IMG/VR virus record: IMGVR_UViG_3300010282_000326
Length of the DNA stretch: 64,000 nt
Strand: one strand, 5' to 3'
From: an uncultured virus (IMG/VR IMGVR_UViG_3300010282_000326)
Taxonomy: Duplodnaviria; Heunggongvirae; Uroviricota; Caudoviricetes
The notes under the pieces were generated by a model, which made no database searches, was not told where the DNA came from, and saw only the letters and a list, made by a program, of their open reading frames with translations. The first letter of the stretch is position 1, and each line of letters starts with the position of its first letter. The translations under genes were made by a program, and so were the position numbers. This document shows, piece by piece, positions 10,264 through 63,961 of the stretch.

Positions 10264-11553
10264 ATGGAAGATATGGAAAATCTACCTTATCATAGAAAGT
10301 ATCGACCAAATACATTAACTAAATATATAGGTAATGAAAAGCTTAAAGAGACTGCTATGGCAGCATTACAGGGTAATAAGCGACCTCAGGTTATTTTATT
10401 ATATGGAGATTCTGGTTGTGGTAAAACCACTTTTGCTCGACTGCTTGCTAAGGAGTATTCTTGTGAGAATAGAGATGATGAGCATGGTGCTTGTGGAGAA
10501 TGTCCTAACTGTCAGATGATAGATGAATATATAGTCACTGGTAATTTGGATATGATAACTAATATACAAGAAATTGATATCACAGACCAAAGTGGTAAGA
10601 ATGATTTATCTGCTATCTTAGAGGATATGATGTTACCTACTTATGGAAATGAGTGGAAGATTTATATTCTTGATGAAGCACATCAGGCTTCTCAGGCATT
10701 ACAGAATAGACTTCTTAAGATTACAGAAGAGCCACCAGAACATGTGCTTATAATGTTTTGTACTACTAATCCAGAGAAGTTGATTCCTACACTTAAGAAT
10801 AGATGTCAATTACAACTTCATGTTCAAAAGCCTAAAGTTAAGGAATTAGCAGGTTTACTTCGTTATGTTTGTCAATGTGAACAAGTTGAATATGATATGC
10901 GAGGTCTTGAGTTTATAGCAAACAGAGGCGAATTAACCATAAGAACTGCATTACAGAATCTTCAACAGGTAGTTACGGAGCAACAGTGTGCAGATTATAA
11001 TAGTGCAACTAAGGTATTCGAGACAATTTCTAATGCACTTATTATGGATATTTTTACAGCATTAAAATCCAAGGACGTTTTTAGATTCGTAACTCTCCTT
11101 TACGAAATAAAGGCGAAAATGGATTTAACTGTGTTCTTGACTGAGTTGAAAGGCTTTGTTATTCGAGGTATCTATACTATCAATGGCATAACTTTAGATG
11201 GAGTTTCTGATAATGAGTTGAAGGTATATCGAAATTTATTTGGTGATTTAGGGGTATCTCAAATCAGTTATTTACTTAAAAGATTGCTTAGTTTAGATAC
11301 GAGAAATCTTGAAATAGAACTACTTTCTTTGGGGTATGCAGGTTTGGATTTACCAGTACAAGAAGAGAAAAAAGATGTTGTAATTAAGCCTATTGAAGGT
11401 GAGTTAGCTTTAGAAGAGAAAAATGCAAATTCAGTCATTAAAGAGAAACGAGAGGCTGATTATGATAAAGGTGTTGAGAATGCATCTAATATGATGCAGG
11501 CAGCAAGTATTGAGTCCATTTTAAGTATGGGTGGTTCTTTAGTTAATAAATGA
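10264..11553 (+). CDS. dnaX: DNA polymerase III gamma/tau-like clamp-loader subunit
   Basis: RKYRP N-terminal motif, Walker A GDSGCGKTT, C4 zinc motif, Walker B DEAH, LLKITEEPP, NRC in place of SRC; start reassigned after GGAGG. Confidence 0.9.
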   Translation: MEDMENLPYHRKYRPNTLTKYIGNEKLKETAMAALQGNKRPQVILLYGDSGCGKTTFARLLAKEYSCENRDDEHGACGECPNCQMIDEYIVTGNLDMITNIQEIDITDQSGKNDLSAILEDMMLPTYGNEWKIYILDEAHQASQALQNRLLKITEEPPEHVLIMFCTTNPEKLIPTLKNRCQLQLHVQKPKVKELAGLLRYVCQCEQVEYDMRGLEFIANRGELTIRTALQNLQQVVTEQQCADYNSATKVFETISNALIMDIFTALKSKDVFRFVTLLYEIKAKMDLTVFLTELKGFVIRGIYTINGITLDGVSDNELKVYRNLFGDLGVSQISYLLKRLLSLDTRNLEIELLSLGYAGLDLPVQEEKKDVVIKPIEGELALEEKNANSVIKEKREADYDKGVENASNMMQAASIESILSMGGSLVNK

Positions 11554-11622
11554 TTCTTTAATTTATTAATAAATTCCTTGTAGCGTTTTTCTACAAAAAA
11601 CTAAATAAGGAGGTAAAGAGCT

Positions 11623-12432
11623 ATGAAGATTGCTACAAAGAGTCAAAGACTGTTCAGCAGAATGCTTCTTGTTTTTTGCATGATGAGTATCATTGCATTT
11701 GCAAGCCCAGTGTTAATTCATGCTGAAGGTGGTCTAAGTGGTGACGGCATTGGCAGTTCTACTACTGAAGATGGTGGTAATTCTGGCGATGACGATTCAA
11801 TTTCTGATTATCTCAAGGGGTACACTCCAGTTACCGATGAGAATATGCAGAAAGCATCTAAGTTGGCTGGACCGATTGCAAGTGCTATCGGTACCGTATC
11901 AGGTTTCATTATTATTGTAGTAAGTGCAGGAATTTTTCTTGTAACAGCCTTAGACCTATGTTATATAGGTTTACCATTTACTCGTAATATGCTTGCCCCT
12001 CAAGCTGTAGGTGGAGGTGCACCTATGGGAGGCATGGGCATGGGTATGGGAGGTATGGGTGGCATGATGGGAGGTGCTGGAGCACAACCTCAGCCACGCA
12101 AATGGGTTTCAGATGAAGCAATCCAAGCAGTTGCTATGGCTAACCCTCAAGGTGGAGCAATGGGTGGCTCACCTATGATGGGTGGAGGCATGGGAATGGG
12201 TATGGGTGCTATGGGAGGCATGGGTGCTATGGGAGGCGGTCAGCCAGTACCTACCAAGTCTGTTATCCTCACATACCTTAAAAAGAGGTCATTCTTCATA
12301 ATTGTATTTACAATCTGTACAATTCTTCTTATGAGTTCTGTATTTACAGATTGTGGTATAAATCTTGCAGAGTTACTTTACAAAGTACTTAACAAGTTTA
12401 ATGGAGAAATCTCTAATGTATCTGTTGATTAA
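11623..12432 (+). CDS. membrane protein, paralogue family member 1, with Gly/Met-rich loops
   Basis: Signal peptide and TM helices; motif ALDLCYIGLP...WVSDEA..AV...YLKKR shared with the 14189 and 15125 genes. Confidence 0.8.
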   Translation: MKIATKSQRLFSRMLLVFCMMSIIAFASPVLIHAEGGLSGDGIGSSTTEDGGNSGDDDSISDYLKGYTPVTDENMQKASKLAGPIASAIGTVSGFIIIVVSAGIFLVTALDLCYIGLPFTRNMLAPQAVGGGAPMGGMGMGMGGMGGMMGGAGAQPQPRKWVSDEAIQAVAMANPQGGAMGGSPMMGGGMGMGMGAMGGMGAMGGGQPVPTKSVILTYLKKRSFFIIVFTICTILLMSSVFTDCGINLAELLYKVLNKFNGEISNVSVD

Positions 12433-12460
12433 TCAGATATAACAAAATAATCATATTTTT

Positions 12461-12496
12461 GGTGAGAGAATGAAAATTTCTCTCACCTTTCTTTTT
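12461..12496 (+). terminator. intrinsic terminator
   Basis: GGTGAGAGAA / TTCTCTCACC hairpin plus T-rich tail. Confidence 0.75.
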
Positions 12497-12845: not shown

Positions 12846-13358
12846 ATGGAAATGGATAAAACAAGTATAGCTATTAAGGTTTATGTGATAGCTGAAGAGT
12901 ATGGTGTTCCTCGCACTATAGTTAAATCTATAATTTCAAGTTATATTGATTATTGTAAAGATTTGATTTTACATGGAGAAAGGGTTGACTTTGTTGGGCT
13001 AGTTTCTGTAGTTCCAGATGTTCAAGTAGAGACTTATAATTCAACTCTTGCATTTGAGTGTACTAAACTTGCAGATGTTTTAGGAATTCCATATAATACT
13101 GTATTTATTATAATAAGAGAATATATTAATGGACTTATAGATGAATTATTAAATGGAAAGTCCGTAGAAATAAGGGGTATCGTTACTATGAAACCTTATT
13201 ATGAGAATGATAAGATTGGTGGAATACACGCTTCAATTTCTACGAGTATTAAAAAAGCATTATCTTTAATTGATTCTCCAGTTTCTTTTGTTCGTGTTCA
13301 TACACATAAGTTATTAAAGTATAATTTACAACAAGTTAATTCAAAGTTAGCTTCGTAA
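12846..13358 (+). CDS. tandem HU/IHF-like DNA-binding protein
   Basis: Two HU-like repeats: IAEEYGVP...LILHGERVDFVGLVSV and LADVLGIP...LLNGKSVEIRGIVTM. Confidence 0.55.
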   Translation: MEMDKTSIAIKVYVIAEEYGVPRTIVKSIISSYIDYCKDLILHGERVDFVGLVSVVPDVQVETYNSTLAFECTKLADVLGIPYNTVFIIIREYINGLIDELLNGKSVEIRGIVTMKPYYENDKIGGIHASISTSIKKALSLIDSPVSFVRVHTHKLLKYNLQQVNSKLAS

Positions 13359-13407: not shown

Positions 13408-14160
13408 TTGACTGGTAAGACACACAAAGCAGGTGGAATGTTATGTAGTATAATAGGATTCGCAATCCTGCGAGAAAAAGGTCTTTTACTGCCAGAGGTT
13501 AGTGAAGGAATTCAGTGGTTAGTTATGTATCCATTCTGTATATGGGGTAGTCTAGCAAGTGATTTAGACCATAATCCAGATTCAATACCGATGAAGGATA
13601 TTCCTAGTACAGCAGTGAATAAAGTATTACATTTAACACACCCTTTAGTCAAGACAATAGAAAAGGCTTCATCAGAAAGCGAGAGAAAAAAGAATGTAGT
13701 TTATCAAGGTGCTAAGTTCCTAGATGCTAAGCATAGAAGTTGGCAAACTCATTCAGATTTAACACTTTATGTGTTAATAGGGCTTCTTTATTGTATTATG
13801 AATAATAAGTTCACATTTCTTTCTGCTTTAGATGTTTCTTTACTATCAATTGTATTAATGGGAATTTCGTTAGGTATAATAGCACATTTCATACTGGATA
13901 TGATAACGCCAGAAGGGGTATGGTGTATACCATTTGTTTTGGTCAATGCTTTTTTAGGAATATTTAATCCTAGACTAAAAATATTACCTGAGAAGATACA
14001 TTTCGTACCTCATAAGAAATTCTTTGCAACAGGTGGTAAATGGGAAGAGTTTATACAAAAAGTTCTTAAATGGGCTACAATAGTAGCAAGTATTTGGTTC
14101 TTCTTTACTCTTCTAGTACCAGATTGGAAATCGTTAATACCTTTTACTATTTCATTTTAG
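13408..14160 (+). CDS. membrane-bound metal-dependent hydrolase (YdjM-like)
   Basis: TH...GSLASDLDH...HRSWQTHS...HFILDMITPEG motifs; TTG start. Confidence 0.8.
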   Translation: MTGKTHKAGGMLCSIIGFAILREKGLLLPEVSEGIQWLVMYPFCIWGSLASDLDHNPDSIPMKDIPSTAVNKVLHLTHPLVKTIEKASSESERKKNVVYQGAKFLDAKHRSWQTHSDLTLYVLIGLLYCIMNNKFTFLSALDVSLLSIVLMGISLGIIAHFILDMITPEGVWCIPFVLVNAFLGIFNPRLKILPEKIHFVPHKKFFATGGKWEEFIQKVLKWATIVASIWFFFTLLVPDWKSLIPFTISF

Positions 14161-14188: not shown

Positions 14189-15097
14189 ATGAAGGTAACA
14201 AAAAGAAGCCAAAAAGTTTTGGCTATCATAATGTTGAGTCTTATGATGTTAGGCTCATTTATGTATCTTAAGCCTAAAGCAGGCGGTGCAGATACGAGTG
14301 CAGCAGAGGCTGAAGCAGCATTAAAGACTGCAGTTTATCAGGGTTCTATAACCACATCTTACGATATGCTTGATTTCGCAACTGATGAGTTCAAGACAGA
14401 AGGTGGTGGTTTCAAGCTTTACACTAGCATTTCTAATTACGATAATTACATTAATGCAGATGTATTTAGTACATTAAAAGCTGGTGAGAAGCAGAAGTTC
14501 TTAAAAGATGAGCTTCAGATTGGTAATGCTATGGTTTATGCTACTGAGAATGATGACCCATTAGGTGGTGGTGTTACATCTGATACACTTAATGGTATGC
14601 TTCAGACTTTACAGGATAAGTCAGGTATGGGTTCTCAGCTTTTAGCTACACTGCTTAGTGAAACTAAGCCAGATTATGCAACAGCAAATAGATTATATAA
14701 GCCATTCAGTGGTGTAGTTGGTACAATACTTGGTGTTATATCAATTCTCATTATGGCACTCTTAGGTATAACAATGGCACTTGATATTGCATTTATCGTT
14801 ATCCCTGCATTCCAGCTTATTATGGGTGGAGATGATGGTGGAAATGGTAAAGAGGGTAGTAAGTTCTCTAAGCTTATTTCAGTTGAAGCTCGTAATGCAG
14901 TAAATGCAGCCGAAGGTGGCGGAGGTGCAGGTGGTCAAGATGGCTCAGGACATAAGATGGCACTTGGTATATATTTCAAGGCTAGATGGAAAGGCTTAGT
15001 TATTCTTGGTATCTGTTTGTTATACTTAGTACAAGGTCAGATTTACAGCTTTGTAGCTTGGGTAATAGACCTTTTAAGTGGTTTCTTAGGTTTCTAA
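14189..15097 (+). CDS. membrane protein, paralogue family member 2
   Basis: ALDIAFIVIPAFQ...ISVEARNAV...YFKAR...CLLYLVQG. Confidence 0.8.
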   Translation: MKVTKRSQKVLAIIMLSLMMLGSFMYLKPKAGGADTSAAEAEAALKTAVYQGSITTSYDMLDFATDEFKTEGGGFKLYTSISNYDNYINADVFSTLKAGEKQKFLKDELQIGNAMVYATENDDPLGGGVTSDTLNGMLQTLQDKSGMGSQLLATLLSETKPDYATANRLYKPFSGVVGTILGVISILIMALLGITMALDIAFIVIPAFQLIMGGDDGGNGKEGSKFSKLISVEARNAVNAAEGGGGAGGQDGSGHKMALGIYFKARWKGLVILGICLLYLVQGQIYSFVAWVIDLLSGFLGF

Positions 15098-15124
15098 GTT
15101 TTTACTCATTAGGAGGTAGTGTAT

Positions 15125-15997
15125 ATGAGAAGGATTTTGAGTTCTGTTTTAGCACTACTCTTAATAATGGGGGTAGTCGTAAGACTATCCCCATTTTATT
15201 ATGTTAATGCTAGTGCTAATCCAACAATAACAATTGATGCAGGAAATACAACAGAAGTTAGCAAGATACAAGATTGTTGTATTCAAATAAATGACGATAT
15301 TAAAACAGATGTTTTAACTGGTAAGTCAGGTAATAAAAGTCAACAAGAACTTCAGTGGGATTATCTTGAATATAAGCTTGAAGCAGGTACTGGGGTTTCT
15401 AAAGGTGCAAAAACTACTATTACAATTACTATAAATCAAACAAGATATAAGGCTTTAAGTCAGGAGAAGCGACAAGACTTAATGGAGATAGCTTTAACAG
15501 GGATTCAGAATAGTGGTATGAGTACTACAAATAGAAATAAAATGTATAATTTCGTTTCTAAATCTGATGAGGCTACTGCAAGTTTAGTAAGACAGTTAAG
15601 TAATGATGTGAATGCTGATTTTGGTGAGGCTTATTCAATGTTTAAGCCATTTACAGGTGTTTTAGGTACTTTCTTAGGTGTTTTATCTTTATTGATATTT
15701 ATTTTACTTGGTATTACCGTAACTATAGATTTGGCTTATATTAACATACCAGCTTTCCAGATATTCTGTATGGGTGCTACAAAAGAGGAAAAGCCTAAGT
15801 TTGTTTCTATTGAAGCAGTTAATGCAGTTAAAGAGTCAGAAACAAAGCCAGACACAAGTTCTGGAGTAGCTTATTTCAGAATGAAGACAAAGCAATTTAT
15901 AGCTTTAGGTGTTTGCTTATTATATTTAGTTAGTGGTAAACTCTATGTATTGTTAGCAAATATAATTGACTACTTCCAAGGGGTATTACCAGATTAA
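15125..15997 (+). CDS. membrane protein, paralogue family member 3
   Basis: TIDLAYINIPAFQ...VSIEAVNAV...YFRMK...CLLYLVSG. Confidence 0.8.
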   Translation: MRRILSSVLALLLIMGVVVRLSPFYYVNASANPTITIDAGNTTEVSKIQDCCIQINDDIKTDVLTGKSGNKSQQELQWDYLEYKLEAGTGVSKGAKTTITITINQTRYKALSQEKRQDLMEIALTGIQNSGMSTTNRNKMYNFVSKSDEATASLVRQLSNDVNADFGEAYSMFKPFTGVLGTFLGVLSLLIFILLGITVTIDLAYINIPAFQIFCMGATKEEKPKFVSIEAVNAVKESETKPDTSSGVAYFRMKTKQFIALGVCLLYLVSGKLYVLLANIIDYFQGVLPD

Positions 15998-16016: not shown

Positions 16017-19000
16017 ATGTTAAGGTTGATACAAAAATACAATATAAAAAGGGGAATTGCATCTGTTCTTGCTTTGCTGATGCTTGTATCAGCTTTTGCT
16101 AGTATTAAGCCTTTAGATGCTAAGGCAGATTCAAATGACCGAAGGAAGACTTACTTAGAGCTTATGGCAGGTAAAGATTTAACTGATATAAGTGATGTTA
16201 GTGCATTAACGAGTGAGGATTTAAGATGTATAGCTTTATTCTTATCTAACTATTACTTACCTTTTTCTACAGTGTTAGATAATACTGATGCTGAGGTAGC
16301 AGCAAGCAATAAAGCTAATATGGTAGACTGTTTAAAGAAGATTGGTTTTGATGGAGAAGCAGCAGAACAAATTGTGGAAACAATTTATAAGCAGACTTTA
16401 GCTACTGCAAAGCCATTATATGTAGATGGTTTAGATGCTAATAGAACAATAGATTCAAGTGTGTCAGCTGATTGGACATCTTTTGGTTGGGGTAAAGACC
16501 ATAATGACCCAGGAGTTACTGGAAATTCTTTTAAGACACAGGATTATAAAGATCATGTAGGTGAAATGATTGATGACAAATACACTCCTTTAACATTATT
16601 TATTTGGGATTCAGTTATGAGAGACCAATCTGATAGACCATCAGATGGGTTAAATTCAGGAAATATAACTCTTTATTGGGATAATGATGGAACAATGCAA
16701 CCTTGTTTTAAGGTTGATAATTTAGTAAGAAACTTGTATATATCCATGACATCAACTCCAAATGGCTCAAGTCAAAAGAAAATGTCAGCTTGGGGTGACG
16801 GAGCTATGGGAAATGCAATGGCATTAATAAAAGGTGGAAAGACAGACACAGATGGGGTAGTTTTAGGTGCTGATGGTCAAGAGTTATCTGAAACAGAAAT
16901 TTATGCTTCATTTATCTTTACTGAGAAAATGTATGTAGACTGGGTTGGTAATATAGTAGCTGATTTAGGTACACATAGAGTAGTAGTTTTTCCAGCAGCT
17001 TGTAATCCTTATGTATTTTCACATATAGGTGAGGCTACTTCAACAGATGCAGCTGATTTAAGCCCACATGCTAATTTAATATCTGTTCAGACACAACAAA
17101 TGATAAAGAGAATGGGTAGTTGGTTTGATGTTGATGACAGTGGTTTAATTACTAGTTCAACTAATGGTGTTGCATCTATATTAACTGAAGTAGCTTCATT
17201 AGACCCAGATTATCAAACTAAGCATGACCTAAAAACTGGTGGTTATTTGTTATCTAGTAGTTTTAAGATACAATCAGAAATGAAGATGTCATATAATAAT
17301 ACTAAGCAAGTTACATGGGATTCTTATGAGAAGTTTTGGGGTGGTAATACATCTAAGGATTCAGCAAAACAATTGAAGAAAAGAGCTGCAGATATGAAGA
17401 TTTCTGGTACATATCCATATGATAACCCAGATGATGATTGGGCTGCAGATGGCGAATTCAATATGAGTTTTAGGACTGTAGTATTAGGTAATAAAGATAC
17501 TGTTTCAACATATTTAGTATATAAATCTATACCTAATGTAGATGAGTTAGAGGATGATGCTTTAGGTAGTCAGTCTTTTGTTGTAAATGATTTTATGAAG
17601 TCTAATTTGAAAGAGACTCCATATTTTAACTCTGTTCAGAGTGATATAGGTGCAGGAAAGTTCAAAGTTTTTACTGCGAATGCTTCTGATTCTGCTGAGT
17701 TGGCAAACTACTTTATAAGTTATGCTTTTGCTTATGCAAATAAAGATGCTGTAAATGGTGAGAGTTATAAAGGTAGTGAAGCTAAATATTATGTTGATAT
17801 AAAGTTTAATGATATCTTCCCTAATACTGATGGTGAGGCTATTGAGTGGGAAACAAATTCACATACTGGTGATAAAGTTATGAGTTTTGTTTACTATTTA
17901 TTACATCCAGTTGAAGGTGCAGCTTATGTAGCAACTTTATTTAAGAATAAAGTTTCAGGTATTATTGTAGGTTGGCATGAAGATGTAGTAGGTGGTACAG
18001 ATTCAAATTATACAACAGGTATGACAAAGTACTTAGGATTCACGGGGTATGCTACGAGTCCAAGTTTATATGATATAGATTGGATAGCAGGTATTTTAGA
18101 TACCTATAATAATCTTATAGTTTATGTAATAATATTGTTATGTGTGATATTGTTATGCTATGTATTAATAGGTAGTTTAACAATACAAAGAGGTGTAATT
18201 GGTGTATTTTGTTTTGCAATATTAGCGTTTTTACCTCCAGTTGCTATTAATGCAAGTGTAGAAATGATAAATAGAACTTGTGATAGTATTTATAGTAGTA
18301 AATTTGATTATTGGGCTATATGTCAGGTGGAGGGCTATTTACCTAAATTAAATGCAATTCAACAAGCTGATAATGTTAATGATTATATAGCAGCTTTAAT
18401 GGATATAAAGACTGTTAATGATAGTATTGCTGGTGAGTCAGAGTCTACATTCTCAGGTGTTAAATTAAAGTGGGTATCACCTAAGAAATTTAATGATATG
18501 ACAGCAGTAACAAATGAATTATCGGAGTCACAGCAAATGTCATCAACATTTTCTCCTACTTTTATTCATGTATTATCAAATTCTTTAGCTTCTACAAATT
18601 CAACTGAGGAATTTGTTCAAGATGCAGATTACTTATATAGAGATTATTTAGATATTTATAGGTATGCTTCAACAAGTTATAATTTATATACTACATTTAA
18701 TTTAAATGACTCTATTAGGAAGTCAGGTACAAAAGTTTCACTTGATGGTGGTGATACTACAGTTAGTAATGCTATTTTAGCAGGTGCAAAAACATATAAT
18801 TCTGTTGGTGAGAACTGGTTATCTTGTACTTATGCTTATATCCCAGATTCAAGTGTTAAAGATACATTTAATCTTTCAAAAGATGGCATGGCTACACAGT
18901 TTGTACCTAGAAATATTAAGTACCTTGATAGTGGTTTAAACTTTGCAATGTTTGCTGTAGATGCTAATAGCCCTAAAGATAAAAATACAGCCTATTCAAG

Positions 19001-23040: not shown

Positions 23041-23124
23041 ATTAGTGGATATTTTTGTAATTTAATCGTTGAATAGTTTGATTTAAGTACTTTATTTTTC
23101 AATATTATATATGAGGTGATAATT

Positions 23125-45868: not shown

Positions 45869-45883
45869 ATATGCGAGATAACC

Positions 45884-48160: not shown

Positions 48161-48176
48161 TCAGGTTTTAAGTTAT

Positions 48177-48217: not shown

Positions 48218-48261
48218 AATCTCATAATATTTTTAATATTAAATTAAAAAGGGGTGATATT

Positions 48262-48459: not shown

Positions 48460-48470
48460 GGAGTATTCTT

Positions 48471-49211: not shown

Positions 49212-49263
49212 TTATTGCTTAATTCAACTTATAATCTATATAAATTATTTAGGAGGTTTTGTA

Positions 49264-49935
49264 ATGGAAATTAATGTTAAAGGCTCTGCAAGTCAGTTAG
49301 TTGACCCAGATTATATGACTTGCCGTATTAGTTTATTTGGTGTTTCTGCAGAGAAGGAACTTGCTGAAGCAAGTGTACTTAGTAGTTATGATAAAGTTAA
49401 AGAGTTTTTTGAAAGTAATGAAATTACTGAAAGTCTTAGAACCTCATCTTATGTTATTTCAGAGGAATATGAGAAAGTAAGTAAGAAGTTCGCAGATGAA
49501 AATCCGAATTATAAGCCTAAGTTTCTTGCTTTCCATGTAACTCAGGTTCTTGTTATAGATATTCCTATGGATATTAAACTTGTTATGAATTTCATTAACA
49601 ATGTTGCAAAGGTAAAGGAAGTTCAGATTTCAGTTGAGTATTATATCAAGGATAAAACAGAGGCTCAGACAGCAGTTATGCTTAAAGCTTTTGAGAAGGC
49701 TAAGGAAAAGGCTGTTGCTCTTGCAAAGAAAGTTAAGCCTTTTATCAATGCTGAAGTTATAGAACCTACAATGGTTAGTTATGTAATTCATGATTACAAT
49801 CACAGAAGCAATTTCAGGGGTTGCAATCTTGATGGAGCATATTTCGGGGCTAGTTTAGCAAATAAAGTAGCCGATTCAATCGAACCACAAAAGATAAGCA
49901 TTTCTGAGGAAGTAATTACAAAGTGGGAAGTTTAA
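49264..49935 (+). CDS. SIMPL (DUF541) domain protein
   Basis: INVKGSA...VDPD; AFEKAKEKAVALA; IEPQKISISEEVITKWEV; start reassigned after AGGAGG. Confidence 0.75.
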   Translation: MEINVKGSASQLVDPDYMTCRISLFGVSAEKELAEASVLSSYDKVKEFFESNEITESLRTSSYVISEEYEKVSKKFADENPNYKPKFLAFHVTQVLVIDIPMDIKLVMNFINNVAKVKEVQISVEYYIKDKTEAQTAVMLKAFEKAKEKAVALAKKVKPFINAEVIEPTMVSYVIHDYNHRSNFRGCNLDGAYFGASLANKVADSIEPQKISISEEVITKWEV

Positions 49936-49962
49936 TTTTAGTTTATTAGGAGTGTTAGTTTG

Positions 49963-52194: not shown

Positions 52195-52273
52195 GAGAAT
52201 TGTAGTAATGATATTTTTTTAACTTAATTGTTGAAGAATTCGATTAAAGATTTAATTGATGGAAGGTGATACA

Positions 52274-52651
52274 ATGAAAATATCTGATATAATTGAAAAA
52301 ATTAAAAGTTCTGAAATTATCAAGCTGATAGCGGATGAAGCAGACATTCAAGGGGTAGAACGAGGAACAATACTTGGTTTCCGAGTTAAGGCTTATGATA
52401 TTGATAGTGATAGTTATAACTTCTATGATTTTAGTAAGAATATGGTAAAGGACATTAAGGAAATTACTGAGTATATCAATAGTAGTTATAAAAATATGAA
52501 TGCTGAAAAGTTACATTGGAAGAATGGCATTCTTCAAACAGATAATGAGGCTAATGGAACAGTTAAAGTTTTAGAACTGAAAGATCAGAATCATATTTTA
52601 AATGTATTACTTCCAGTAATTAGAGTTTGTAAGATAAAGGAGGCTAAATAA
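52274..52651 (+). CDS. hypothetical protein
   Basis: Start reassigned to ATG 52274; coupled to the next gene. Confidence 0.7.
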   Translation: MKISDIIEKIKSSEIIKLIADEADIQGVERGTILGFRVKAYDIDSDSYNFYDFSKNMVKDIKEITEYINSSYKNMNAEKLHWKNGILQTDNEANGTVKVLELKDQNHILNVLLPVIRVCKIKEAK

Positions 52652-55600: not shown

Positions 55601-55773
55601 GTATTTCAGACGAGGATATAAAAGTAATTGATTATATGCTTGCACATAGAGACTTATTAGATGGTAAAACTTTAGCTATAATTGATTCTGTAAAGAAATA
55701 CGGAAAGGCTACAGAAAGACAAAGAAAGTATGTAGATATAGCTATTGAAAAGTATAAAGAAGTAGAAGGATGA
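52651..55773 (+). CDS. large protein with acidic N-terminus, Cys-rich zinc-ribbon region and duplicated C-terminal helical module
   Basis: CPNC, CIKC, CANC, CTLNH, FGLDC; C-terminal repeats ILDTVK...TDNQ and IIDSVK...TERQ. Confidence 0.8.
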   Translation: MFKLVGVTEQDGQKAFAILNSEGTIEAITETDMKIGLNYKLNVEGASLDDSGEIVYNPSLDFKEDDDEEDYETEYVEDEDDEEDYDETTDEIELQLSRYAKRLTSIMEKSPDEIVAQLKNIWETGSTETLVQGTSEEYGVVQFQATYEDEDYIWGIDNEWYDDLDDAIDDYIGFINDSDGTDSYGNDEEEYDDDIEEDDEEDYEDASDLSEEEAEELKREQWEEATDGNVYFDGENFVYKTNKIILPNFNNGDFSDPTKKFWGNVSDFNFDEDDETDSDVDKATLSTQEKLFSYLDENKMQLLQKYFLYMSQFIFELDRGNIALKPSKKADFDAVRAAGRDLGHSWYYAGFVDMGYRGTSVCPNCGVRLRYNAISSCCHMPVYRLDVEKDGKTTLVNDDGNALGVWKRTHNGQCIKCGAKCDCVRTKVGTREIDRNSNDLICANCGTVVQQSNHYCTLNHQTRFIHLAWDITNSDMETFNGQVINADINNIIESTNCIKFGLDCVADFFEIAKDSTAFQVLKKVQTTCCTDMAEMAELYESHNGDISEINDSFTILDDLVPKLILKGVKYTFMKKDTYIPTQLLKLYVEMRKVGLLIPRSMIKFIRNYLVDWNLTEDKFSDGSKKFQHLGNSIGNISGAKKNTNDSYDSIGRVAEVLNDGWNNIQNVIDSWKAGYQRWGTPSNFTSRYLTAFFLYKLCGFYEYDAEKYTDEGGRGKGHQKELAEFYSSLDSSVRKDFNVIDYSYDFVSKLNDVVNYLDIDSNLATIRKALMSPHISKNYDGVYEKDSEREDFNKDVIMAYNADILLKIAELEKLTDYAYYRKIIRNELTVTIDDYKNSIQPIFWLEEQSKNFKSFADSYIDELVFKKNEAEAIAKQEREQERQRELAKMQMEEELKKQAQVVQQATPVSNSPAKTKKEVIDWLSNADLSAHKSSELAIKILDTVKGKDTCTDNQFYYLKKLYEEESGMKFEGTQQGGKMASADSISDEDIKVIDYMLAHRDLLDGKTLAIIDSVKKYGKATERQRKYVDIAIEKYKEVEG

Positions 55774-56919: not shown

Positions 56920-57618
56920 ATGTCTAATATCAAAGATGACACACAAGCAAAACAGAAGAGTCAACAGGCAGCTCAGAAGGCGAAACAGCTTCCTAGTAGC
57001 ACTCAGTATGCTATTGTTCAGGTTCTGCCAAATATATTAAATGGCTGTTTTTGGGGCTTTACAGACTTGAACGATATCAAGAAACATTATGAGGCTTTAA
57101 AGCAGGATAAGAATATTCAGGCAAGAAAGCTTGGTAATGCTTGTCTTTTAGAGGTTGAGCCATCTTATCTGCTTAAGGCAGTTCAGATGATTGATACTAA
57201 TGCTATCAATCAGAAGGATATCGAAGTTATGAAGAAGGCTATGTTTGATGCTGAATATGAATTTGAAAAGTTCATTATTCGTTCAGCTCAGAGTAAGTCA
57301 GGTTTTGGAGGTACTATAGGTATCTACTGTACCAATGATTCAACTGCAATCACATATAAAGGTACAAGATATCCTGCTTTCAGACTTAATCTTCAGAAAG
57401 TAGTTAAGTATCTGATGCAGTATAATTATGCAATACAGATAAATGGAAAGTTTATTCCAGCATCTCAAGCAGCTCAAAATGGACAGGCACTTTTTGAGGC
57501 TTTGAATTTGAGTCCAACAAATACTGGTGCATTCTTAAATATCAAGTACTTAGGTACTCCAGAGCAGGGCAAGCAATATGAAACACAGTTCAAGGCTAAG
57601 TATGGACTTAAGAAGTAG
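56920..57618 (+). CDS. hypothetical protein
   Basis: AAGGAGG RBS; followed by a terminator. Confidence 0.8.
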   Translation: MSNIKDDTQAKQKSQQAAQKAKQLPSSTQYAIVQVLPNILNGCFWGFTDLNDIKKHYEALKQDKNIQARKLGNACLLEVEPSYLLKAVQMIDTNAINQKDIEVMKKAMFDAEYEFEKFIIRSAQSKSGFGGTIGIYCTNDSTAITYKGTRYPAFRLNLQKVVKYLMQYNYAIQINGKFIPASQAAQNGQALFEALNLSPTNTGAFLNIKYLGTPEQGKQYETQFKAKYGLKK

Positions 57619-58146: not shown

Positions 58147-58920
58147 ATGAAGATTTTTATTTTTCTTGGCTTGAGTATAGTTGCTTACATTGCATTTATG
58201 CAAATTATATTTAAGTTATTATTCAAAGTCAAGCAGTCTATAACAACAAAGTTCATATTAAAACTTATAACTTATGTAGGGGTATTCATAATAATTTTGG
58301 GGTATCTAAATCATTATGACCTTACAAAGAATGTAGGTAAAACATTATTTCAGAGTAGTGCAGTTATAGTTGCAATATTAACTTTTTCTGCACAAAAGTT
58401 CTTAGGTAATGTTATTTCAGGTATTGCTTTAACCTTTCAAAAGCCATTTGAACTTGGTGAGAAAGTGCAATTAAAGTCAACTGGAGGAAATATAGTTGTT
58501 GAGGGTTATATTATAGATATAACTATTAGACATACTTCAATTAAGCAAGTAGATGGTAAGGTTTGCTTAGTACCTAATAGTGTTATAGATGAGCTTGTTG
58601 TTGTAAATAGTAATACTCTTGAAAACATGGGGTATCCATTTTATATGTTTTGTAGTTTTGATTCTGATGTTGAATTAGCTATTGAGTTAATGCAGGAAGA
58701 GATTGATAAAAATAAACGAACAATAAAGACAGATGAAGTAACAAATAGAGTTCTTTGTTCAGAAGTTGCTGATGATGGTTTTAAGCTTCAGGCGATTATT
58801 TGGACAGATAATATAACAGATAACTTTAAGGCTTGTTCTGAATTAAGAATAAGTATATTTAAAGCTTGGCAAGAACATGGTATTGACATACCATATAAAA
58901 CAATAACAATAAAGGAGTAA
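58147..58920 (+). CDS. mscS: MscS-family mechanosensitive channel
   Basis: Three TMs; LGNVISGI...KPFELGE, EG...DITIRHT, VPNS, GIDIPY. Confidence 0.9.
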   Translation: MKIFIFLGLSIVAYIAFMQIIFKLLFKVKQSITTKFILKLITYVGVFIIILGYLNHYDLTKNVGKTLFQSSAVIVAILTFSAQKFLGNVISGIALTFQKPFELGEKVQLKSTGGNIVVEGYIIDITIRHTSIKQVDGKVCLVPNSVIDELVVVNSNTLENMGYPFYMFCSFDSDVELAIELMQEEIDKNKRTIKTDEVTNRVLCSEVADDGFKLQAIIWTDNITDNFKACSELRISIFKAWQEHGIDIPYKTITIKE

Positions 58921-59231: not shown

Positions 59232-59381
59232 ATGACAGAGTGTGAATTGCAGAAAACTAAAGGTTGGGAATTATTCTTAATAAATGAATTACAAGGCTAT
59301 AAGGTATATATTAACTTAGATGAGAATAAGAAAGCAAGAGTAAAACAAGGGGTAGTTATAGAGGTAAGGGAAATTCTATGA
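59232..59381 (+). CDS. 49-aa hypothetical protein (absent from the ORF track)
   Basis: AAGGAG RBS; ATGA overlap with the next gene. Confidence 0.55.
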   Translation: MTECELQKTKGWELFLINELQGYKVYINLDENKKARVKQGVVIEVREIL

Positions 59382-60484
59382 AAGATAAGACTTTTTGGAC
59401 AATAGCTTTATCTTCTATAGTAACATTAGTATTAACTCTTTTAGCTGTTACAATAATGGATAATAGAGGCTTTCTTAAGCGGAAAGATGTAAATACTATC
59501 AATGCTTATGTTGAGGAAATACGAAAGAATTATTATACTGATGTTACAGATGAAGAATTAAAGAATAATATTTATCATAGCTTGTTTCGTGTGGATAAGT
59601 ATTCAGATTATCTTGATACAGAGGAATTTGATAAATTTATGAATAAAACTGATGATTTTGTTGGTATAGGTATTTATGTTGTTCAGCGTAGTTATGATAA
59701 CAAAGTTAAAGTTGCTGATGTTTATCCTAATTCACCAGCTTCAAAAGCTGATATTTATAAAGATGATATTATAGTTGCTATTGATGATGTAAATATAGAG
59801 TATCTTAGTTTGGATGAAATATCTGGAATGCTTCGTGGAGAGCCTGATACTGATGTTAAAGTAACATTAGTTAGAGAAAATGATACTTTAGAGAAAACAA
59901 TAACTCGTAAGGCTCTTGAATATGAGTTAGTTTCCAGCACAATGTATGATGATATACAGTATATAAAGATATACGAATTTTTTGGCGATGTTGCTGACCA
60001 GTTTAAGCAAGAATTAAATCCTAATGCTAAAGGTCTTGTAATTGACTTACGCAATAATACTGGTGGTGATGTTGATATTATGATAAAGGTTATTAGTTCT
60101 ATATTATCTAAAGATGAGTTAGTAACTTACACAGTAAGTAAAGATGATGTAAGAGTAGATTATAATACTATTGATGGTCAGTGTGTTTCTGAGGAGTTGC
60201 CAATTATACTTTTGGTAAATGAGAATACTGCTTCAGCAGCAGAGATGATGACAGCTTGCCTTATGGATTATAATCGAGTTAAAGTTATTGGAAATACAAC
60301 TTATGGAAAAGGGGTAGTTCAAACACTTATCACTGAAGGAAATATAGGTTTCAAGTTAACAACAGATATTTGGTATTCTCCAAATGGAAATTGTGTAGAC
60401 CAAGTTGGTATTAAACCAGACATATTAGAAGAAGATGTTGATAATCAGCTAATTTTAGCTTTAGATAAAATAAAAGAAGATTAA
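59378..60484 (+). CDS. S41 family C-terminal processing peptidase with PDZ domain
   Basis: DKYS, GIG PDZ motif, DLRNNTGG, TASAAE, TYGKGVVQ, GIKPD. Confidence 0.92.
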   Translation: MKDKTFWTIALSSIVTLVLTLLAVTIMDNRGFLKRKDVNTINAYVEEIRKNYYTDVTDEELKNNIYHSLFRVDKYSDYLDTEEFDKFMNKTDDFVGIGIYVVQRSYDNKVKVADVYPNSPASKADIYKDDIIVAIDDVNIEYLSLDEISGMLRGEPDTDVKVTLVRENDTLEKTITRKALEYELVSSTMYDDIQYIKIYEFFGDVADQFKQELNPNAKGLVIDLRNNTGGDVDIMIKVISSILSKDELVTYTVSKDDVRVDYNTIDGQCVSEELPIILLVNENTASAAEMMTACLMDYNRVKVIGNTTYGKGVVQTLITEGNIGFKLTTDIWYSPNGNCVDQVGIKPDILEEDVDNQLILALDKIKED

Positions 60485-60705: not shown

Positions 60706-60716
60706 GGAGTTAGTTG

Positions 60717-61277
60717 ATGACTTTAGTTGATTTTATTTTAACTTATGAAAGAGATGGAAAGATTGTTTGTAATCTTTTTGACTATTATGAAGAATTTATA
60801 AAGCCTTTAGATGAGAGATTTCGTAATCATAGTTACTATGAAAATGACTTAGTTCTCTGTTATCTTAAAGGACACGCTGATGTAAATCCATCTATGGGTT
60901 ATATCAATGATAAGTTTCATAAAGGTGTTAAACTTTGTCATTGTTTTGGTTGTGGTGCTACTTATAATGTAGTTCGATTAAATCAAGTCATTAGTAGTCA
61001 GTATTTTGATAAAGAACTTTCTGAAAAAGATTCATGTGTTGATTTAGCAAATAAATTTAACATTGATATATCTGAGTTTGATGAGCTTGCTGATGATGAC
61101 TATGAAGGAAAGTATCTTGCTAAATTAAGAAGAATTGAGCAATTAAAGCGTAGATATACTTTTAATGATTTTAAAGATAAACTTCTTGAGCAAAGAAGAG
61201 CAGGAAATGTTAATTTAAGTCAGGTAAATTCAGAGTGTGTTAAAATGATAGCAACAACAAAACAATTGTATGATTAG
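60717..61277 (+). CDS. stand-alone CHC2-type (primase-like) zinc-finger protein
   Basis: LC...H.DVNPS...CHCFGCG...CVDLA; too short to include a TOPRIM domain. Confidence 0.7.
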   Translation: MTLVDFILTYERDGKIVCNLFDYYEEFIKPLDERFRNHSYYENDLVLCYLKGHADVNPSMGYINDKFHKGVKLCHCFGCGATYNVVRLNQVISSQYFDKELSEKDSCVDLANKFNIDISEFDELADDDYEGKYLAKLRRIEQLKRRYTFNDFKDKLLEQRRAGNVNLSQVNSECVKMIATTKQLYD

Positions 61278-61783: not shown

Positions 61784-62986
61784 ATGGTAAAGAAAAAGTT
61801 GTTTTGTGGTTTAGTTGTGGGTGCACTTATGATTTCTATGTGTGCTTGCGGAAAGACAGAGAAAAGTGGCATGACTTCGGAACAGGCTAAGGAAGTCGCT
61901 TCTACATTGGTTTCAACTGTTACTGAAGCTGATAAAGAAGTTACTGCTGAAAGTTTGCTGAATGGTATCGACAGTGAAGCTCACAAAGAAGATACTATGA
62001 AAGCTAAAATGACTTTCGTAACCGATATGGAGTCAACAATGACTGAAGGCTCAAATGAAAAAGTAGCTTTCAAAATGAGTGCTGATATAGATGTTGTAGG
62101 AAATAAGACAGCATCTCATGCAACTGGAAACATGGCTATTGATGTTTTAGGAATGCAAAGCACTCAAGGGGTAGAAACCTACTCAGTTCTTGAAGATGAC
62201 GGTACAATTACAAATTACTCTTTAGACACCTTAAAGGGTGCTTGGACAAAGGAAGTGAATAGTGCAGGTAATTCTTTTGATACCAGTACTTATATGAATT
62301 CTATGAAGAGTGATTATTTTACAGACCTTAATCTTGAAGAAACAGAAGAGGGGTATGTAGTTACTGGTAATATCAGTGCAGGTTATCTTAGTGATTCTCT
62401 TATGGATGCAACTGGTGAGTATGCTAATATGACATCTGTAGATGATGAACAGCTTGTATTCGTAACCTTAACATTTGATAAGGATACAAAGGAGGTTAAG
62501 AAACTTGTATTTGATATGGGTAAGGCTATGGGTGATGCTGAAAAGCTCAATGTAAAAGAGTTTACTGTGACACTTGATATTCTTGGTTATAGTAAGGATG
62601 CTGTTGAAGTTCCAGAGAGTGTAAAAACTAATGCAGTTGATGCTTCTGAGTTAGAAGATGTTGAAACAAGTACTCAGAGTGATGCAGCTCTTGACCTTGA
62701 TAACACCCCACTCAATAAGTTATTTGGTCTTTCAGATAAGCCAGATGCTGAAGAAGTAAAGCTTTATGGAAATGGTAGTTTCGATAATGCTTCTGATGAT
62801 GTTGTAAATGTTATAGTTCAGTTATCCACTATGACAATGACAGAAATCAATGAAAAATATCTTGCAAAGTATTCAGAGCAGGATGACAATACAAAAGATG
62901 CTATAGCCTATATAGTTAAGGCAGGTTGGATAACTCTTGATGAAACCTCGGATGAGTTAACCGAACGAATTAAGAATTTAAAGTAG
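61784..62986 (+). CDS. lipoprotein (DUF6612-like beta-rich architecture)
   Basis: Lipobox MCAC; start reassigned after GGAGG. Confidence 0.75.
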   Translation: MVKKKLFCGLVVGALMISMCACGKTEKSGMTSEQAKEVASTLVSTVTEADKEVTAESLLNGIDSEAHKEDTMKAKMTFVTDMESTMTEGSNEKVAFKMSADIDVVGNKTASHATGNMAIDVLGMQSTQGVETYSVLEDDGTITNYSLDTLKGAWTKEVNSAGNSFDTSTYMNSMKSDYFTDLNLEETEEGYVVTGNISAGYLSDSLMDATGEYANMTSVDDEQLVFVTLTFDKDTKEVKKLVFDMGKAMGDAEKLNVKEFTVTLDILGYSKDAVEVPESVKTNAVDASELEDVETSTQSDAALDLDNTPLNKLFGLSDKPDAEEVKLYGNGSFDNASDDVVNVIVQLSTMTMTEINEKYLAKYSEQDDNTKDAIAYIVKAGWITLDETSDELTERIKNLK

Positions 62987-62990
62987 TCAC

Positions 62991-63028
62991 TAAGGGGTAG
63001 CATCTAAGGTGTTACCCCTTATTATTTT
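62991..63028 (+). terminator. intrinsic terminator
   Basis: TAAGGGGTAGCA / TGTTACCCCTTA. Confidence 0.75.
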
Positions 63029-63073
63029 AGGGGGAGAAATTGGGGTAGCCAATGTAAGTGAGGAAGAAGAATA

Positions 63074-63961
63074 ATGAGTTATGCTAATGTTATTATTGAA
63101 AAACCTACAGTGTTAAATTTATTTAAGACCATACCGAGTGGTATTGGTTTAGATATTGCCAAAAACCATTCAGGTATTACTATTTGGAATGGTGAGACTA
63201 TTGAAACTTATGGTTTCTCTATTGATGAGTATTCTAAGGATGATTATTTTGCTGAATATCGTATGAGAAAACAGTTTAAAGAGAAACTTACTAATATAGT
63301 TTGTGGTAGACATTTTGAGTATTGTGTTATAGAAGATGTATATGGTGGTGAGAATTTTGATACCACTAGGAAATTGCTTGCATTACAAACTGTAATTGAT
63401 GAATTGATTTTTTCAAGAATTTGTACTGTTGGTGAGTTCTATAGATGGAATGAACCTAAGTGGTCTAAATATACAAGAATGTTTTATAAACAAAAAGGAA
63501 AATTAAAGTCTAAAGTTGAAACACAAGGTATCTTAGATTTCCTTGAATTTGATTTTTACAAGGAACATTGTGAGGATAAGCCAGCTAAGAAGCGAGAAAT
63601 CTTTTTTGAGGATATTTGTGATTCTTGTGCAATATTGCTTTCTGTAGTCGCTTATAAAAAATTACAGTTAAATATTGCACAGTCAAGCTCTCTTAAGCTT
63701 TCTGATATTAAAATGTATTATATCGAGGATATTATGGATACTTATGGCTTTAAGGATAGAAGGATAGCTGAGGAAGCCTATATTTTGGCTGATATTAATA
63801 CAAGGAATATTGAGAAGGATATTTTACTATTAGCAGGTATGTATCCTAATGATGTTATTTGTGTGGAACTGCCAGTTGATAAGTTAGGTAACTTTGGTTT
63901 GAAGCATGGCTTTAAGTTTTACTCAAGTGGCGAGGGGTACTTGTTTTTCTATAAGAAATAA
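63074..63961 (+). CDS. RuvC-like (RNase H fold) Holliday junction resolvase with C-terminal extension
   Basis: GIGLDIAKNHSG, CVIED, K, EDICDSCAI catalytic pattern. Confidence 0.65.
   Translation: MSYANVIIEKPTVLNLFKTIPSGIGLDIAKNHSGITIWNGETIETYGFSIDEYSKDDYFAEYRMRKQFKEKLTNIVCGRHFEYCVIEDVYGGENFDTTRKLLALQTVIDELIFSRICTVGEFYRWNEPKWSKYTRMFYKQKGKLKSKVETQGILDFLEFDFYKEHCEDKPAKKREIFFEDICDSCAILLSVVAYKKLQLNIAQSSSLKLSDIKMYYIEDIMDTYGFKDRRIAEEAYILADINTRNIEKDILLLAGMYPNDVICVELPVDKLGNFGLKHGFKFYSSGEGYLFFYKK

Follow-up and report, generated by a model that had tools for sequence, protein, structure and literature searches.

Gene content of the window

The DNA analyzed here is a stretch of 64,000 nt from the uncultured virus record IMGVR_UViG_3300010282_000326 (the window; coordinates are positions within it), whose own proteins are on record, according to database metadata, on a contig of 272,762 bp. 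Its conserved backbone consists of two interleaved modules, one for replication and DNA handling and one putatively for transfer. We consider it likely that the window represents roughly one-fourth of a giant, probably extrachromosomal plasmid-like element of at least 273 kb from a ruminant-gut bacterium, belonging to the same deep lineage as the conjugative Bacillus plasmid pXO16. The four relatives used most often for comparison are pXO16 and three uncultured contigs filed in IMG/VR (G001, G002, and G408), all of them described below.

ORF calling gave 54 open reading frames (ORFs) of at least 100 amino acids (aa), 47 of which tile the + strand, while the remaining seven (four on the − strand and three on the +) are nested within longer + strand ORFs. 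The coding density is 90%, and the GC content ranges from 28 to 37% in 2-kb bins. GC skew is positive in all 32 two-kb bins (+0.19 to +0.44), with values of +0.40 at third codon positions and +0.37 in intergenic DNA. Since the bias is found both at third positions and between genes, it reflects a mutational strand bias and not a by-product of amino acid usage. Credible family matches in Pfam, PHROGs, or NCBIfam were obtained for about 15 of the 47 proteins. The others are orphans; many contain signal-like or membrane segments, and some have extended acidic D/E/Y repeats. Within the 64 kb we found no tRNA or tmRNA genes, no match to Rfam families, and no rRNA, ribosomal protein, or core metabolic genes, so that nothing resembling a chromosomal context, with ribosomal operons and these replication genes as sole copies, was seen.

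All nine replication and DNA-handling gene types that a preliminary description of this DNA had named from the sequence (DnaX-like, DnaB-like, DnaC/DnaI-like, primase zinc finger, DnaQ-like, both subunits of a type IIA topoisomerase [topo II A and B], SNF2, and RuvC-like) are present, all on the + strand and amid mostly orphan genes (Table 1). It was also right that their usual chromosomal neighbors (recR, rplI, and dnaA-dnaN-recF) are absent, the flanking genes being orphans.

Table 1. Annotated features of the window with their supporting evidence
Feature	Position	Strand	Evidence and conservation
First backbone gene with a pXO16 homolog	8571-9314	+	29.5% identity to pXO16 230517-231338; 28.8% to G001 59500-60312
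DnaX-like clamp-loader ATPase	10249-11553	+	Pfam DNA_pol3_delta2 1.2e-30; phrog_5846 (clamp loader) 2.6e-51
Weak HU-like DNA-binding protein	12846-13358	+	Pfam Bac_DNA_binding 6.9e-5 (marginal); homologs in pXO16, G001, G002
YdjM-like membrane metal-dependent hydrolase	13408-14160	+	Pfam YdjM 3.9e-10; pXO16 homolog annotated metal-dependent hydrolase
Two secreted/membrane proteins	14189-15097, 15119-15997	+	Homologs in the same place in pXO16, G001, G002 (30-41% identity)
Giant 1,922-aa surface/membrane protein	16017-21785	+	Hydrophobic segments; homologs of 1,589-1,834 aa in the same place in pXO16, G001, G002, G408
Conserved membrane protein	21801-22985	+	33-39% identity to pXO16, G001, G002
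Acidic-repeat protein, weak ParA/CbiA-like C-terminal domain	23116-25290	+	Pfam CbiA 4e-4 (below cut-off); weak G001 homolog
Conserved backbone protein	25304-26539	+	29% identity to pXO16 210899-212137; homologs in G001, G002
HerA/VirB4-like putative conjugative ATPase (best family marker)	26552-28681	+	44.4% identity over 99% of the length to pXO16 copies
Membrane-anchored protein, N-terminal hydrophobic segment	28684-29664	+	36-40% identity to pXO16, G001, G002
FtsK/SpoIIIE-type ATPase, candidate coupling/DNA-pumping motor	32425-34722	+	Pfam FtsK_SpoIIIE 4.5e-13; phrog_1358 2.8e-29
SNF2-family helicase	38994-40604	+	Pfam SNF2-rel_dom 1.2e-10, Helicase_C 1.1e-14
DnaC/DnaI-like helicase-loader fold, N-terminal four-Cys module	40910-41806	+	Predicted fold
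Tandem near-consensus sigma-70-type promoters	41813-41842, 41963-41992	+	Upstream of the topo II B gene
Terminator-like hairpin	41896-41931		Between the tandem promoters of topo II B
Topo II B subunit (GyrB/ParE-like)	42137-44323	+	Pfam Toprim, DNA_gyraseB, GyrB_C; phrog_28877 1.1e-113
DnaQ-like 3'-5' exonuclease	44380-44994	+	Pfam RNase_T 5.5e-18; phrog_192 1.5e-34
Third near-consensus sigma-70-type promoter	45883-45912	+	Upstream of the topo II A gene
Topo II A subunit (GyrA/ParC-like)	45971-48160	+	Pfam DNA_topoisoIV 3.9e-83
SIMPL/DUF541 protein (cargo)	49204-49935	+	Pfam SIMPL 2.9e-16; no homolog in the four relatives
DnaB-like replicative helicase	49960-51456	+	phrog_19 9.2e-13; Walker A at residue 243
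Backbone protein	56920-57618	+	24-28% identity to pXO16, G001, G002, in the same place
MscS-type channel (cargo)	58147-58920	+	Pfam; homolog elsewhere in G408, none in pXO16, G001, G002
S41 peptidase with PDZ domain (cargo)	59378-60484	+	Pfam; no counterpart in the four relatives
Stand-alone primase-type CHC2 zinc finger	60714-61277	+	Pfam CHC2 E 0.0086; TIGR dnaG 4e-4 (weak)
RuvC-like Holliday-junction resolvase, extra C-terminal domain	63074-63961	+	Predicted fold and invariant residues

Replication and DNA-handling genes

The DnaX-like protein has a Walker A motif at residue 53 and a CxxC motif at residue 82, and is 39% identical to its homolog in pXO16 and 42% to that in G001. The corresponding values for the SNF2 helicase are 42% and 44%, and the topo II B subunit is 46% identical to its pXO16 homolog. 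In the A subunit the residues R135-Y136-T137 are invariant in 33 sequences; its true start probably lies 15 codons inward, the database form having 714 aa.

Two of the gene types were recognized through weak family matches together with their relatives. The DnaB-like protein reaches 21.5 bits with Pfam DnaB_C, under the cut-off of 27, and is 42% identical to a pXO16 gene annotated as DnaB-like by NCBI. The homolog of the primase-type zinc finger in G001 matches CHC2 at 6.1e-11, and the counterpart in G408 matches primase PHROGs. A protein with Toprim and DNAG_N domains is encoded by a separate, distant gene in G001, and the same split is found in G408; by analogy, the window gene appears to be one half of a split primase.

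Two others were recognized by predicted fold, without any match to a sequence family. The putative helicase loader has no family match in Pfam, PHROGs, or NCBIfam, and its profile matches DnaC only weakly (E 0.052). An AlphaFold (AF2) model (predicted local distance difference test [pLDDT] 77, predicted template modeling score [pTM] 0.72) has as its top Foldseek match Escherichia coli DnaC in the DnaBC complex (6qem_G; 3.4e-6, template modeling [TM] score 0.39/0.46), followed by DnaI of Staphylococcus aureus and others and by IstB. In an alignment of 15 rows (the window protein, 12 of 13 collected homologs, G001, and G002), C26, C30, C46, and C49 are invariant, a four-Cys N terminus that we take to resemble that of DnaI. 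A motif scan of the window protein found no standard Walker A motif (GxxxxGK[ST]), and this predicted DnaC/DnaI-like protein may not hydrolyze ATP.

The RuvC-like protein gave no sequence-level match to Pfam families or the PDB, either by itself or as a profile. An exhaustive search collected 183 homologous representatives at an E value of ≤0.001, and D27, E87, D180, and D183 are invariant across a 47-row alignment. The AF2 model (pLDDT 94.6) has RuvC structures as all of its ten best PDB matches (TM 0.57-0.67, target normalized), and the G408 homolog matches the PHROG "RuvC-like" family phrog_159 at 9.4e-15. The model thus predicts an RNase H-like fold with the D-E-D-D tetrad of RuvC-type resolvases.

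Taken as parts of a polymerase III (Pol III)-type replisome, the DnaX-like and DnaQ-like proteins score above Pfam cut-offs, the primase is represented by the zinc finger alone, the loader-type part is recognized by fold, and the DnaB-like part by its PHROG match. No C-family polymerase (DnaE/PolC) was found among the window proteins with Pfam.

A candidate transfer module

The region from about 13.4 to 38.6 kb is probably a transfer module, with VirB4-like and FtsK/SpoIIIE-type ATPases, membrane or secreted proteins, and a surface protein of 1,922 aa. The profile of the VirB4-like protein matches the VirB4 structure 4ag5 at 2.3e-5. It also matches the NCBIfam families VirB4_plasma (2.8e-9; 35 bits, cut-off 590) and conju_CD1110 (2.1e-7; 30 bits, cut-off 325), and its Pfam matches to DUF87 and AAA_10 are under their cut-offs. 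The FtsK_SpoIIIE domain is well above its cut-off (49.6 versus 24 bits), the same protein matches the EssC/EccC/FtsK motor domain of NCBIfam, and its pXO16 homolog is annotated as FtsK/SpoIIIE; it may act as the coupling protein. The giant surface protein has no match in Pfam, PHROGs, or NCBIfam, and the products of the two adjacent secreted-protein genes both match one single G408 protein. A motif scan found no Walker A in the protein with the weak ParA/CbiA-like domain, and no cell-wall hydrolase family was matched in the window by Pfam, PHROG, or NCBIfam scans. Long acidic repeats rich in D, E, Y, and S occur in three proteins, encoded at 3803-5416, 23116-25290 (repeats at 23700-23960), and 34747-36336 (repeats at 35400-35940), two of which lie within the transfer cluster.

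A VirB4-like ATPase that is accompanied, amid membrane proteins, by an FtsK/SpoIIIE-type ATPase instead of the classical VirD4 is also found in the Tcp system of pCW3 and in ICEBs1/Tn916. In contrast to these systems, the VirB4-like protein of the window scores far under the family cut-offs, no relaxase, VirB6-type, or hydrolase family is recognizable, and the cluster embeds the 1,922-aa protein and the acidic-repeat proteins. As far as sequence similarity goes, the element seems to resemble the Gram-positive conjugative plasmids of the VirB4-plus-FtsK type, though under family cut-offs.

Collinearity with pXO16

pXO16 (pBTHD789-1; NC_018516) is described in two reviews as a 350-kb low-copy plasmid that is conjugative by experiment (PMC6199540; PMC9673590) whose coding sequences (CDS) share a common orientation and have few database homologs (PMC6199540). 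The sequenced molecule (NC_018516.1, from B. thuringiensis serovar israelensis) is a closed circle of 349.6 kb. Its tip locus, a stretch of 25 kb with 16 CDS that include two ATPases and a cell-wall hydrolase, lies within the presumed "replication region" of the plasmid (PMC6199540; PMC9673590), the hydrolase being TipB (PMC9673590). The plasmid transfers single-stranded DNA with a machine distantly related to type IV secretion systems, like that of pCW3 (PMC6199540), and mobilizes nonmobilizable plasmids and up to 791 kb of the chromosome (PMC9673590; PMC6199540). A 2022 review termed it "the unique conjugative master," with only its own copies found among 1,168 plasmids of the Bacillus cereus group (PMC9673590).

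The window is collinear with this plasmid from 8571 to 63961, corresponding to pXO16 positions 231338 down to 172218, with 21 of the 47 proteins shared at 24 to 46% identity (blastp, E ≤ 1e-4). The common order runs from a backbone protein and the DnaX-like protein through four small proteins, two secreted proteins, the giant protein, membrane proteins, and the VirB4-like ATPase to the FtsK-like ATPase, SNF2, the DnaC/DnaI-like protein, topo II B, topo II A, the DnaB-like helicase, a backbone protein, the primase finger, and the RuvC-like protein. The replisome genes, which the preliminary description had seen as dispersed, instead sit in a conserved, collinear backbone shared with pXO16. Its suggestion of a megaplasmid-class element is supported, the nearest sequenced gene order being that of a conjugative 350-kb plasmid; the kinship with pXO16, the conserved backbone, and the family A polymerase of the relatives are features that go beyond it.

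Searches of sequence collections point in the same direction. With tblastn, the VirB4-like protein had 21 matches among 72,556 plasmid records, all in Bacillus, and 10 of these were B. thuringiensis plasmids of the size of pXO16, with 44.4% identity. The DnaB-like protein had 12 matches in the same set, again all in Bacillus, and neither protein matched any of 50,697 phage records. A blastn search with 42137-48160 found no match among plasmids and phages. Two Bacillus velezensis/amyloliquefaciens plasmids of about 216 kb (NZ_CP076292.1 and NZ_CP071971.1) match both the VirB4-like (26%) and the DnaB-like (22%) proteins and may be more distant cultured relatives, and nine Bacillus plasmids of 136 to 156 kb match the VirB4-like protein alone (23%).

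The likeness extends to GC content (33% in pXO16, 32 to 33% in the window), to genes that are nearly all on one strand and mostly orphans, and to the lack of a recognized relaxase. On the other hand, pXO16 has no counterparts of the DnaQ-like exonuclease, a 1,040-aa orphan, the MscS-type channel, and the S41 peptidase; the habitats differ, with an anaerobic ruminant gut for the window and an aerobic spore-former for pXO16, and relatives of the window occur on contigs of up to about 590 kb. Beyond sequence, pXO16-like plasmids are marked by self-transfer through conjugation accompanied by cell aggregation. Judged by gene order, strand use, and marker proteins, the window is a very divergent member of the pXO16 kind. 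By position and homology, the putative transfer module seems to correspond to the region of pXO16 that holds the two tip ATPases, the VirB4-like and FtsK-like proteins being the sole candidates for these two ATPases in that part of the plasmid.

Uncultured relatives and the polymerase

A profile scan of IMG/VR with the topo II A alignment found two relatives, G001 (140,467 bp) and G002 (128,669 bp). They carry homologs of 24 and 20 of the 47 window proteins, respectively, in the same order, and have 52 and 42 proteins in common with pXO16 (blastp). Five further IMG/VR contigs (G407 to G411) all carry the VirB4-like gene, and one of them, G408 (264,603 bp), has 13 of the window proteins, 11 of which are in backbone order. 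G408 begins and ends with the same 55 bases, the overlap to be expected when an assembler opens a circle. By a simple, greedy ORF calling of our own (minimum length 80 aa), the genes on one strand number 131 of 133 in G001, 131 of 131 in G002, 387 of 395 in pXO16, and 216 of 222 in G408, and GC skew keeps a single sign in all 174 two-kb bins of pXO16 and all 132 of G408. There is no visible switch of skew at an origin or terminus in these closed circles of 350 and 265 kb, which is unusual at such size.

Among the proteins encoded by the relatives are a clamp-like protein, a polymerase of family A, and the Toprim part of the primase, along with NAD-ligase-like, RNase H, RecJ-like, UvrD-like, RecD-like, and SbcCD-like proteins, ParM/actin-type and ParB-HNH partition proteins, and an ArdC-like antirestriction protein. 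Pfam DNA_pol_A was detected in four of five relatives, including both closed ones, and DNA_pol3_alpha (PF07733) in none of the five; as controls, both Pfam models were positive in 10 of 14 known genomes. Since the relatives have no C-family polymerase, the replisome of the window's element would not be a Pol III replisome. By analogy, the remainder of the window's contig should encode a polymerase of family A and a clamp-like protein, together with a ligase, the Toprim primase half, and partition proteins of the ParM and ParB types.

This bears on the idea that the window is part of the small chromosome of a genome-reduced uncultured bacterium, with these as its only replication genes. Related contigs do reach 545 to 589 kb, and in Bacillota chromosomes, too, the leading strand is characterized by co-oriented genes and a strong GC skew. 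Against it stand 64 kb without a single tRNA, rRNA, ribosomal protein, or core metabolic gene and with about two-thirds of the proteins being orphans, a gene order that is that of a plasmid, and the missing Pol III alpha subunit in all five relatives. We regard a small chromosome as highly improbable.

A conserved orphan of 1,350 to 1,475 aa is found in the four relatives (L247:12027-16454 in G001, L254:1258-5640 in G002, L289:13018-17061 in G408, and L259:3490-7812 in pXO16), with an invariant Walker A-like GSRSGKG motif and a DE motif and no match in Pfam, PHROGs, or the PDB. We considered it as a hidden Pol III alpha subunit and rejected this, given the lack of a PDB match and the Walker A and DE motifs, which point to a P-loop nucleoside triphosphatase; from these motifs, the lineage may have in it a third ATPase for transfer or translocation, one that has diverged greatly. 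Another side observation concerns G001, where consecutive genes encode a Ser/Thr kinase, a PP2C phosphatase, and a protein with an FHA domain (84286-87552; L246:4286-7552). The kinase and the phosphatase have homologs in pXO16, and this signaling trio is conserved in the lineage.

Phage, integrated element, or plasmid

None of the 47 window proteins matches a head, packaging, connector, or tail family of PHROGs, in agreement with the preliminary description, which had seen no virion genes. Nor was a virion module found in the relatives scanned: 93 of the 133 G001 ORFs, mostly those without a window homolog, gave no match to the same four classes, and 171 of the 222 ORFs of the closed G408 gave no capsid, portal, or terminase. 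A jumbo phage or phage-plasmid would need virion genes that lie outside the window or are too divergent, with the FtsK- and HerA/VirB4-type ATPases pumping DNA into a capsid. Most of the named window proteins do match PHROG replication families, the roughly two-thirds without a family match could hide structural proteins, and a "phage-like nature" was suggested by the authors of pXO16 on the basis of its one-way genes and many paralogs, although in the cited portion of that work no plaques were obtained (PMC6199540). Self-encoded clamp loader, helicase, primase, type II topoisomerase, and RuvC-like proteins, together with the family A polymerase of the relatives, are also what a jumbo phage would have, as are a low host dependence for replication and the filing as viral in IMG/VR. 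In contrast to jumbo phages, no capsid, portal, terminase, or tail module was recognized in G001 and G408, highly divergent versions being possible, and a VirB4-like ATPase of conjugative type is present. The best structural and family matches of this ATPase are conjugative VirB4 proteins, the two marker proteins match no phage record, and the cultured pXO16 conjugates as single-stranded DNA and, in the cited portions, yields no plaques (PMC6199540; PMC9673590). A phage therefore seems unlikely to us.

A giant integrative and conjugative element (ICE) or a defective prophage within a bacterial chromosome would account for the "provirus" label that IMG/VR gives to G001, G002, G409, and G410, and the ends of the window's contig are outside the view. 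However, no integrase or recombinase family was matched by the window proteins in Pfam, PHROG, and NCBIfam scans, G001 and G002 are one-stranded with pXO16 homologs over their full length and no visible chromosomal flank, and the pXO16 and G408 molecules are circular and closed. Why a passively copied element should carry helicase, loader, primase, clamp loader, and topoisomerase as a full set would be hard to explain, and the VirB4-like marker was not found in 802 genomes sampled. We judge integration to be very unlikely.

Several observations count against an extrachromosomal, plasmid-like element of the pXO16 kind. The window is 64 of about 273 kb, and the ends of the contig, the polymerase, the partition genes, and possible virion genes lie outside it. 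IMG/VR files all seven related contigs as viral; besides the four labeled "provirus," two are labeled "linear" and one as having direct terminal repeats, and CheckV gives completeness values of 73% and 61% for the two "provirus" relatives G001 and G002. Two G408 proteins have a domain of about 100 to 170 residues that matches PHROG "minor tail," "tail," or "virion structural" families, another has an endolysin-type domain, and G001 has a "phage tail lysozyme" domain, all of which would also fit a phage. These may be cell-wall hydrolase domains, which conjugation systems need too, and PHROGs files the RNA ligase of G408 under "tail" as well. The scan for virion families covered G001 and G408, and the statement that pXO16 forms no plaques rests on reviews.

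Further points concern transfer and kinship. No relaxase family was found among the 47 window proteins with Pfam or the 40 scanned with NCBIfam, and no origin of transfer (oriT) was recognized; a relaxase gene could be situated elsewhere on the contig. pXO16 itself is without a known relaxase or oriT in the portion of the source cited (PMC9673590), and MOB-suite types it as nonmobilizable. The equation of the transfer module with tip is based on position and homology. Identity to pXO16 is low (24 to 46%), 26 of the 47 window proteins have no homolog in it, and the DnaQ-like gene has no blastp homolog in any of the four relatives and is therefore not core. The uniform skew could stem from one-way transcription alone. 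Finally, the VirB4-like marker was found in none of five named Clostridia, none of 401 Lachnospiraceae genomes, and none of 401 genomes sampled from that phylum.

Breadth of the lineage, habitat, and host

The topo II A protein has relatives in at least 119 protein clusters (48 to 80% identity, about 710 to 860 aa), almost all of them unnamed and on contigs of up to 545 kb, and a member of one such cluster sits on a 589-kb contig. For the VirB4-like ATPase, 602 clusters were found at an E value of ≤1e-10, with no close cellular counterpart; the best 120 of the 602 show 64 to 94% identity and lie on contigs of up to 499 kb.

A FastTree phylogeny of 114 topo II A sequences (SH-like support values) included the window, every fifth of the cluster representatives P0002 to P0120, pXO16, G001, G002, G408, the first 40 of 63 genome-derived sequences, and, of 70 other viral sequences, the first 45; the 61 rows derived from metagenomes were left out. 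The clade of the window has a support of 99 and is united with pXO16, G001, and G002 (28 rows in all; support 100, stem 0.84), and all 40 cellular sequences sampled fall outside this larger clade. G408 groups separately, with other viral contigs. This placement indicates that the topoisomerases are an old lineage of the elements themselves and not recent loans from hosts. In profile scans of genome and metagenome contigs, the matches listed were ordinary GyrA/ParC proteins of at most 46% identity, and the relatives of 50 to 80% identity were not among them; a search with the single GyrA-like protein found no match in genome contigs or viral contigs. The nearest cellular GyrA among the matches listed is from Lachnospiraceae (37 to 38%), but pXO16 is equally near, and this similarity is therefore uninformative as to the host.

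Near-identical words of 42137-51456 were found in 13 sequencing runs from seven studies, with shares of 0.23 to 0.62. The runs, which may include the source sample and of which two pairs of equal size may be duplicates, are labeled bovine gut (six), sheep gut (one), gut (one), and metagenome (one), with four unlabeled; five further runs with shares of 0.05 to 0.10 of the sampled words and four with 0.00 were not used as evidence of habitat.

Cargo genes, orphans, and promoters

The DnaQ-like, SIMPL, MscS, and S41 genes look like lineage-specific additions to the backbone, judging from their distribution among the relatives. Two orphans of 131 and 1,040 aa (52256-55773) follow the DnaB-like gene before the shared backbone resumes, and the same interval in G001 holds a 406-aa protein, the one with the phage-tail-lysozyme domain. 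The 1,040-aa protein (52651-55773) has three CxxC pairs and a weak TFIIB-type zinc ribbon, and gave no further family in Pfam, PHROGs, or NCBIfam, no PDB match, and no usable Atlas match; its sole similarity, a weak one, is to a 994-aa protein of G408.

The three promoters listed in Table 1 share a 30-nt pattern, TTGACT-17-TATAAT with TG (11 of 12 positions; CTTGACTTTT ... TGnTATAAT, an extended −10), that has three matches in the window versus zero expected. Hairpin-plus-T terminators follow several window genes. Given these consensus promoters and terminators, the genes are probably read by the main sigma factor of the host, in discrete units. The promoter-terminator-promoter layout at 41813-41992 might hold a small RNA or an attenuator.

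Proposed working of the element

From the gene content, predicted folds, synteny, and strand and skew layout, we infer an element that is extrachromosomal, is replicated one way, is able to transfer, and uses its genes in the following manner. The host sigma-A RNA polymerase would read the genes from the consensus promoters, and the element would build most of its own replisome, with little dependence on the host: a helicase, a loader-like partner, a primase, a clamp loader, and an exonuclease would be its own, as would, by analogy with the relatives, a polymerase of family A along with a clamp. In a replicon of a quarter megabase, supercoils would be stripped and daughter circles unlinked by the type IIA topoisomerase, recombination joints and dimers would be resolved by the RuvC-like enzyme, and the SNF2 helicase might remodel incoming DNA or forks that have stalled. 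The transfer channel would be formed by the two ATPases (VirB4-like and FtsK type) together with the giant surface protein and the membrane proteins, and the element would spread by conjugation-like transfer and not in a capsid. Replication and transcription would be co-directional, in a single direction around the circle; the one-strand genes and the single-signed skew of the closed relatives fit such one-way replication.

Relationship to Inocles and significance

In the portion of their description used here, the Inocles of oral streptococci are giant extrachromosomal elements of 245 to 368 kb with a GC content of 32% in three of four taxa, whose conserved genes include an exonuclease, DNA gyrase, "DNA polymerase III," RecD-like, RecJ, and DinG. 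They switch ORF orientation and skew at the origin and terminus and have as a marker InoC, with a Replic_Relax domain (PMC12340149). Compared by description only, the gene list overlaps with the pXO16-type backbone of the window, G001, and G408, and size and GC content are shared. However, the orientation and skew switch has no counterpart in pXO16 or G408, the habitat of Inocles is oral, and Replic_Relax (PF13814) had no match in the window or in any of pXO16, G001, and G002.

A wider interpretation, which we offer tentatively and with more doubt than confidence, would make pXO16 the only cultured member of a large and old lineage of capsid-less giant replicons (about 0.13 to 0.6 Mb) that are common in animal guts and filed as viruses. 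Its members would share a body plan of genes on one strand and one sign of skew around the circle, hence one-way co-directional replication; a hybrid, self-encoded replisome in which a family A polymerase works alongside a clamp and a DnaX-type clamp loader, a split primase, and a DnaB/DnaI-like pair; a type IIA topoisomerase lineage of their own; and a relaxase-less transfer machine of VirB4 and FtsK type. Within this same tentative interpretation, the pXO16 lineage could include the oral Inocles as one branch.

In the literature searched, which did not cover subscription journals, we found no paper on metagenomic relatives of pXO16. The body plan of this plasmid is seen again across gut metagenomes, in unnamed protein clusters that number in the hundreds, and virus catalogs probably count giant plasmids as phages, the seven contigs pointing to a likely systematic misfiling in IMG/VR. 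The one-strand, one-skew circles make it possible to test whether a very large replicon is replicated one way, and the conserved core of about 20 genes, at 24 to 46% identity, singles out the pXO16 orphans that have priority for knockout. The pXO16 kind is known yet barely explored, and its breadth is the interesting part.

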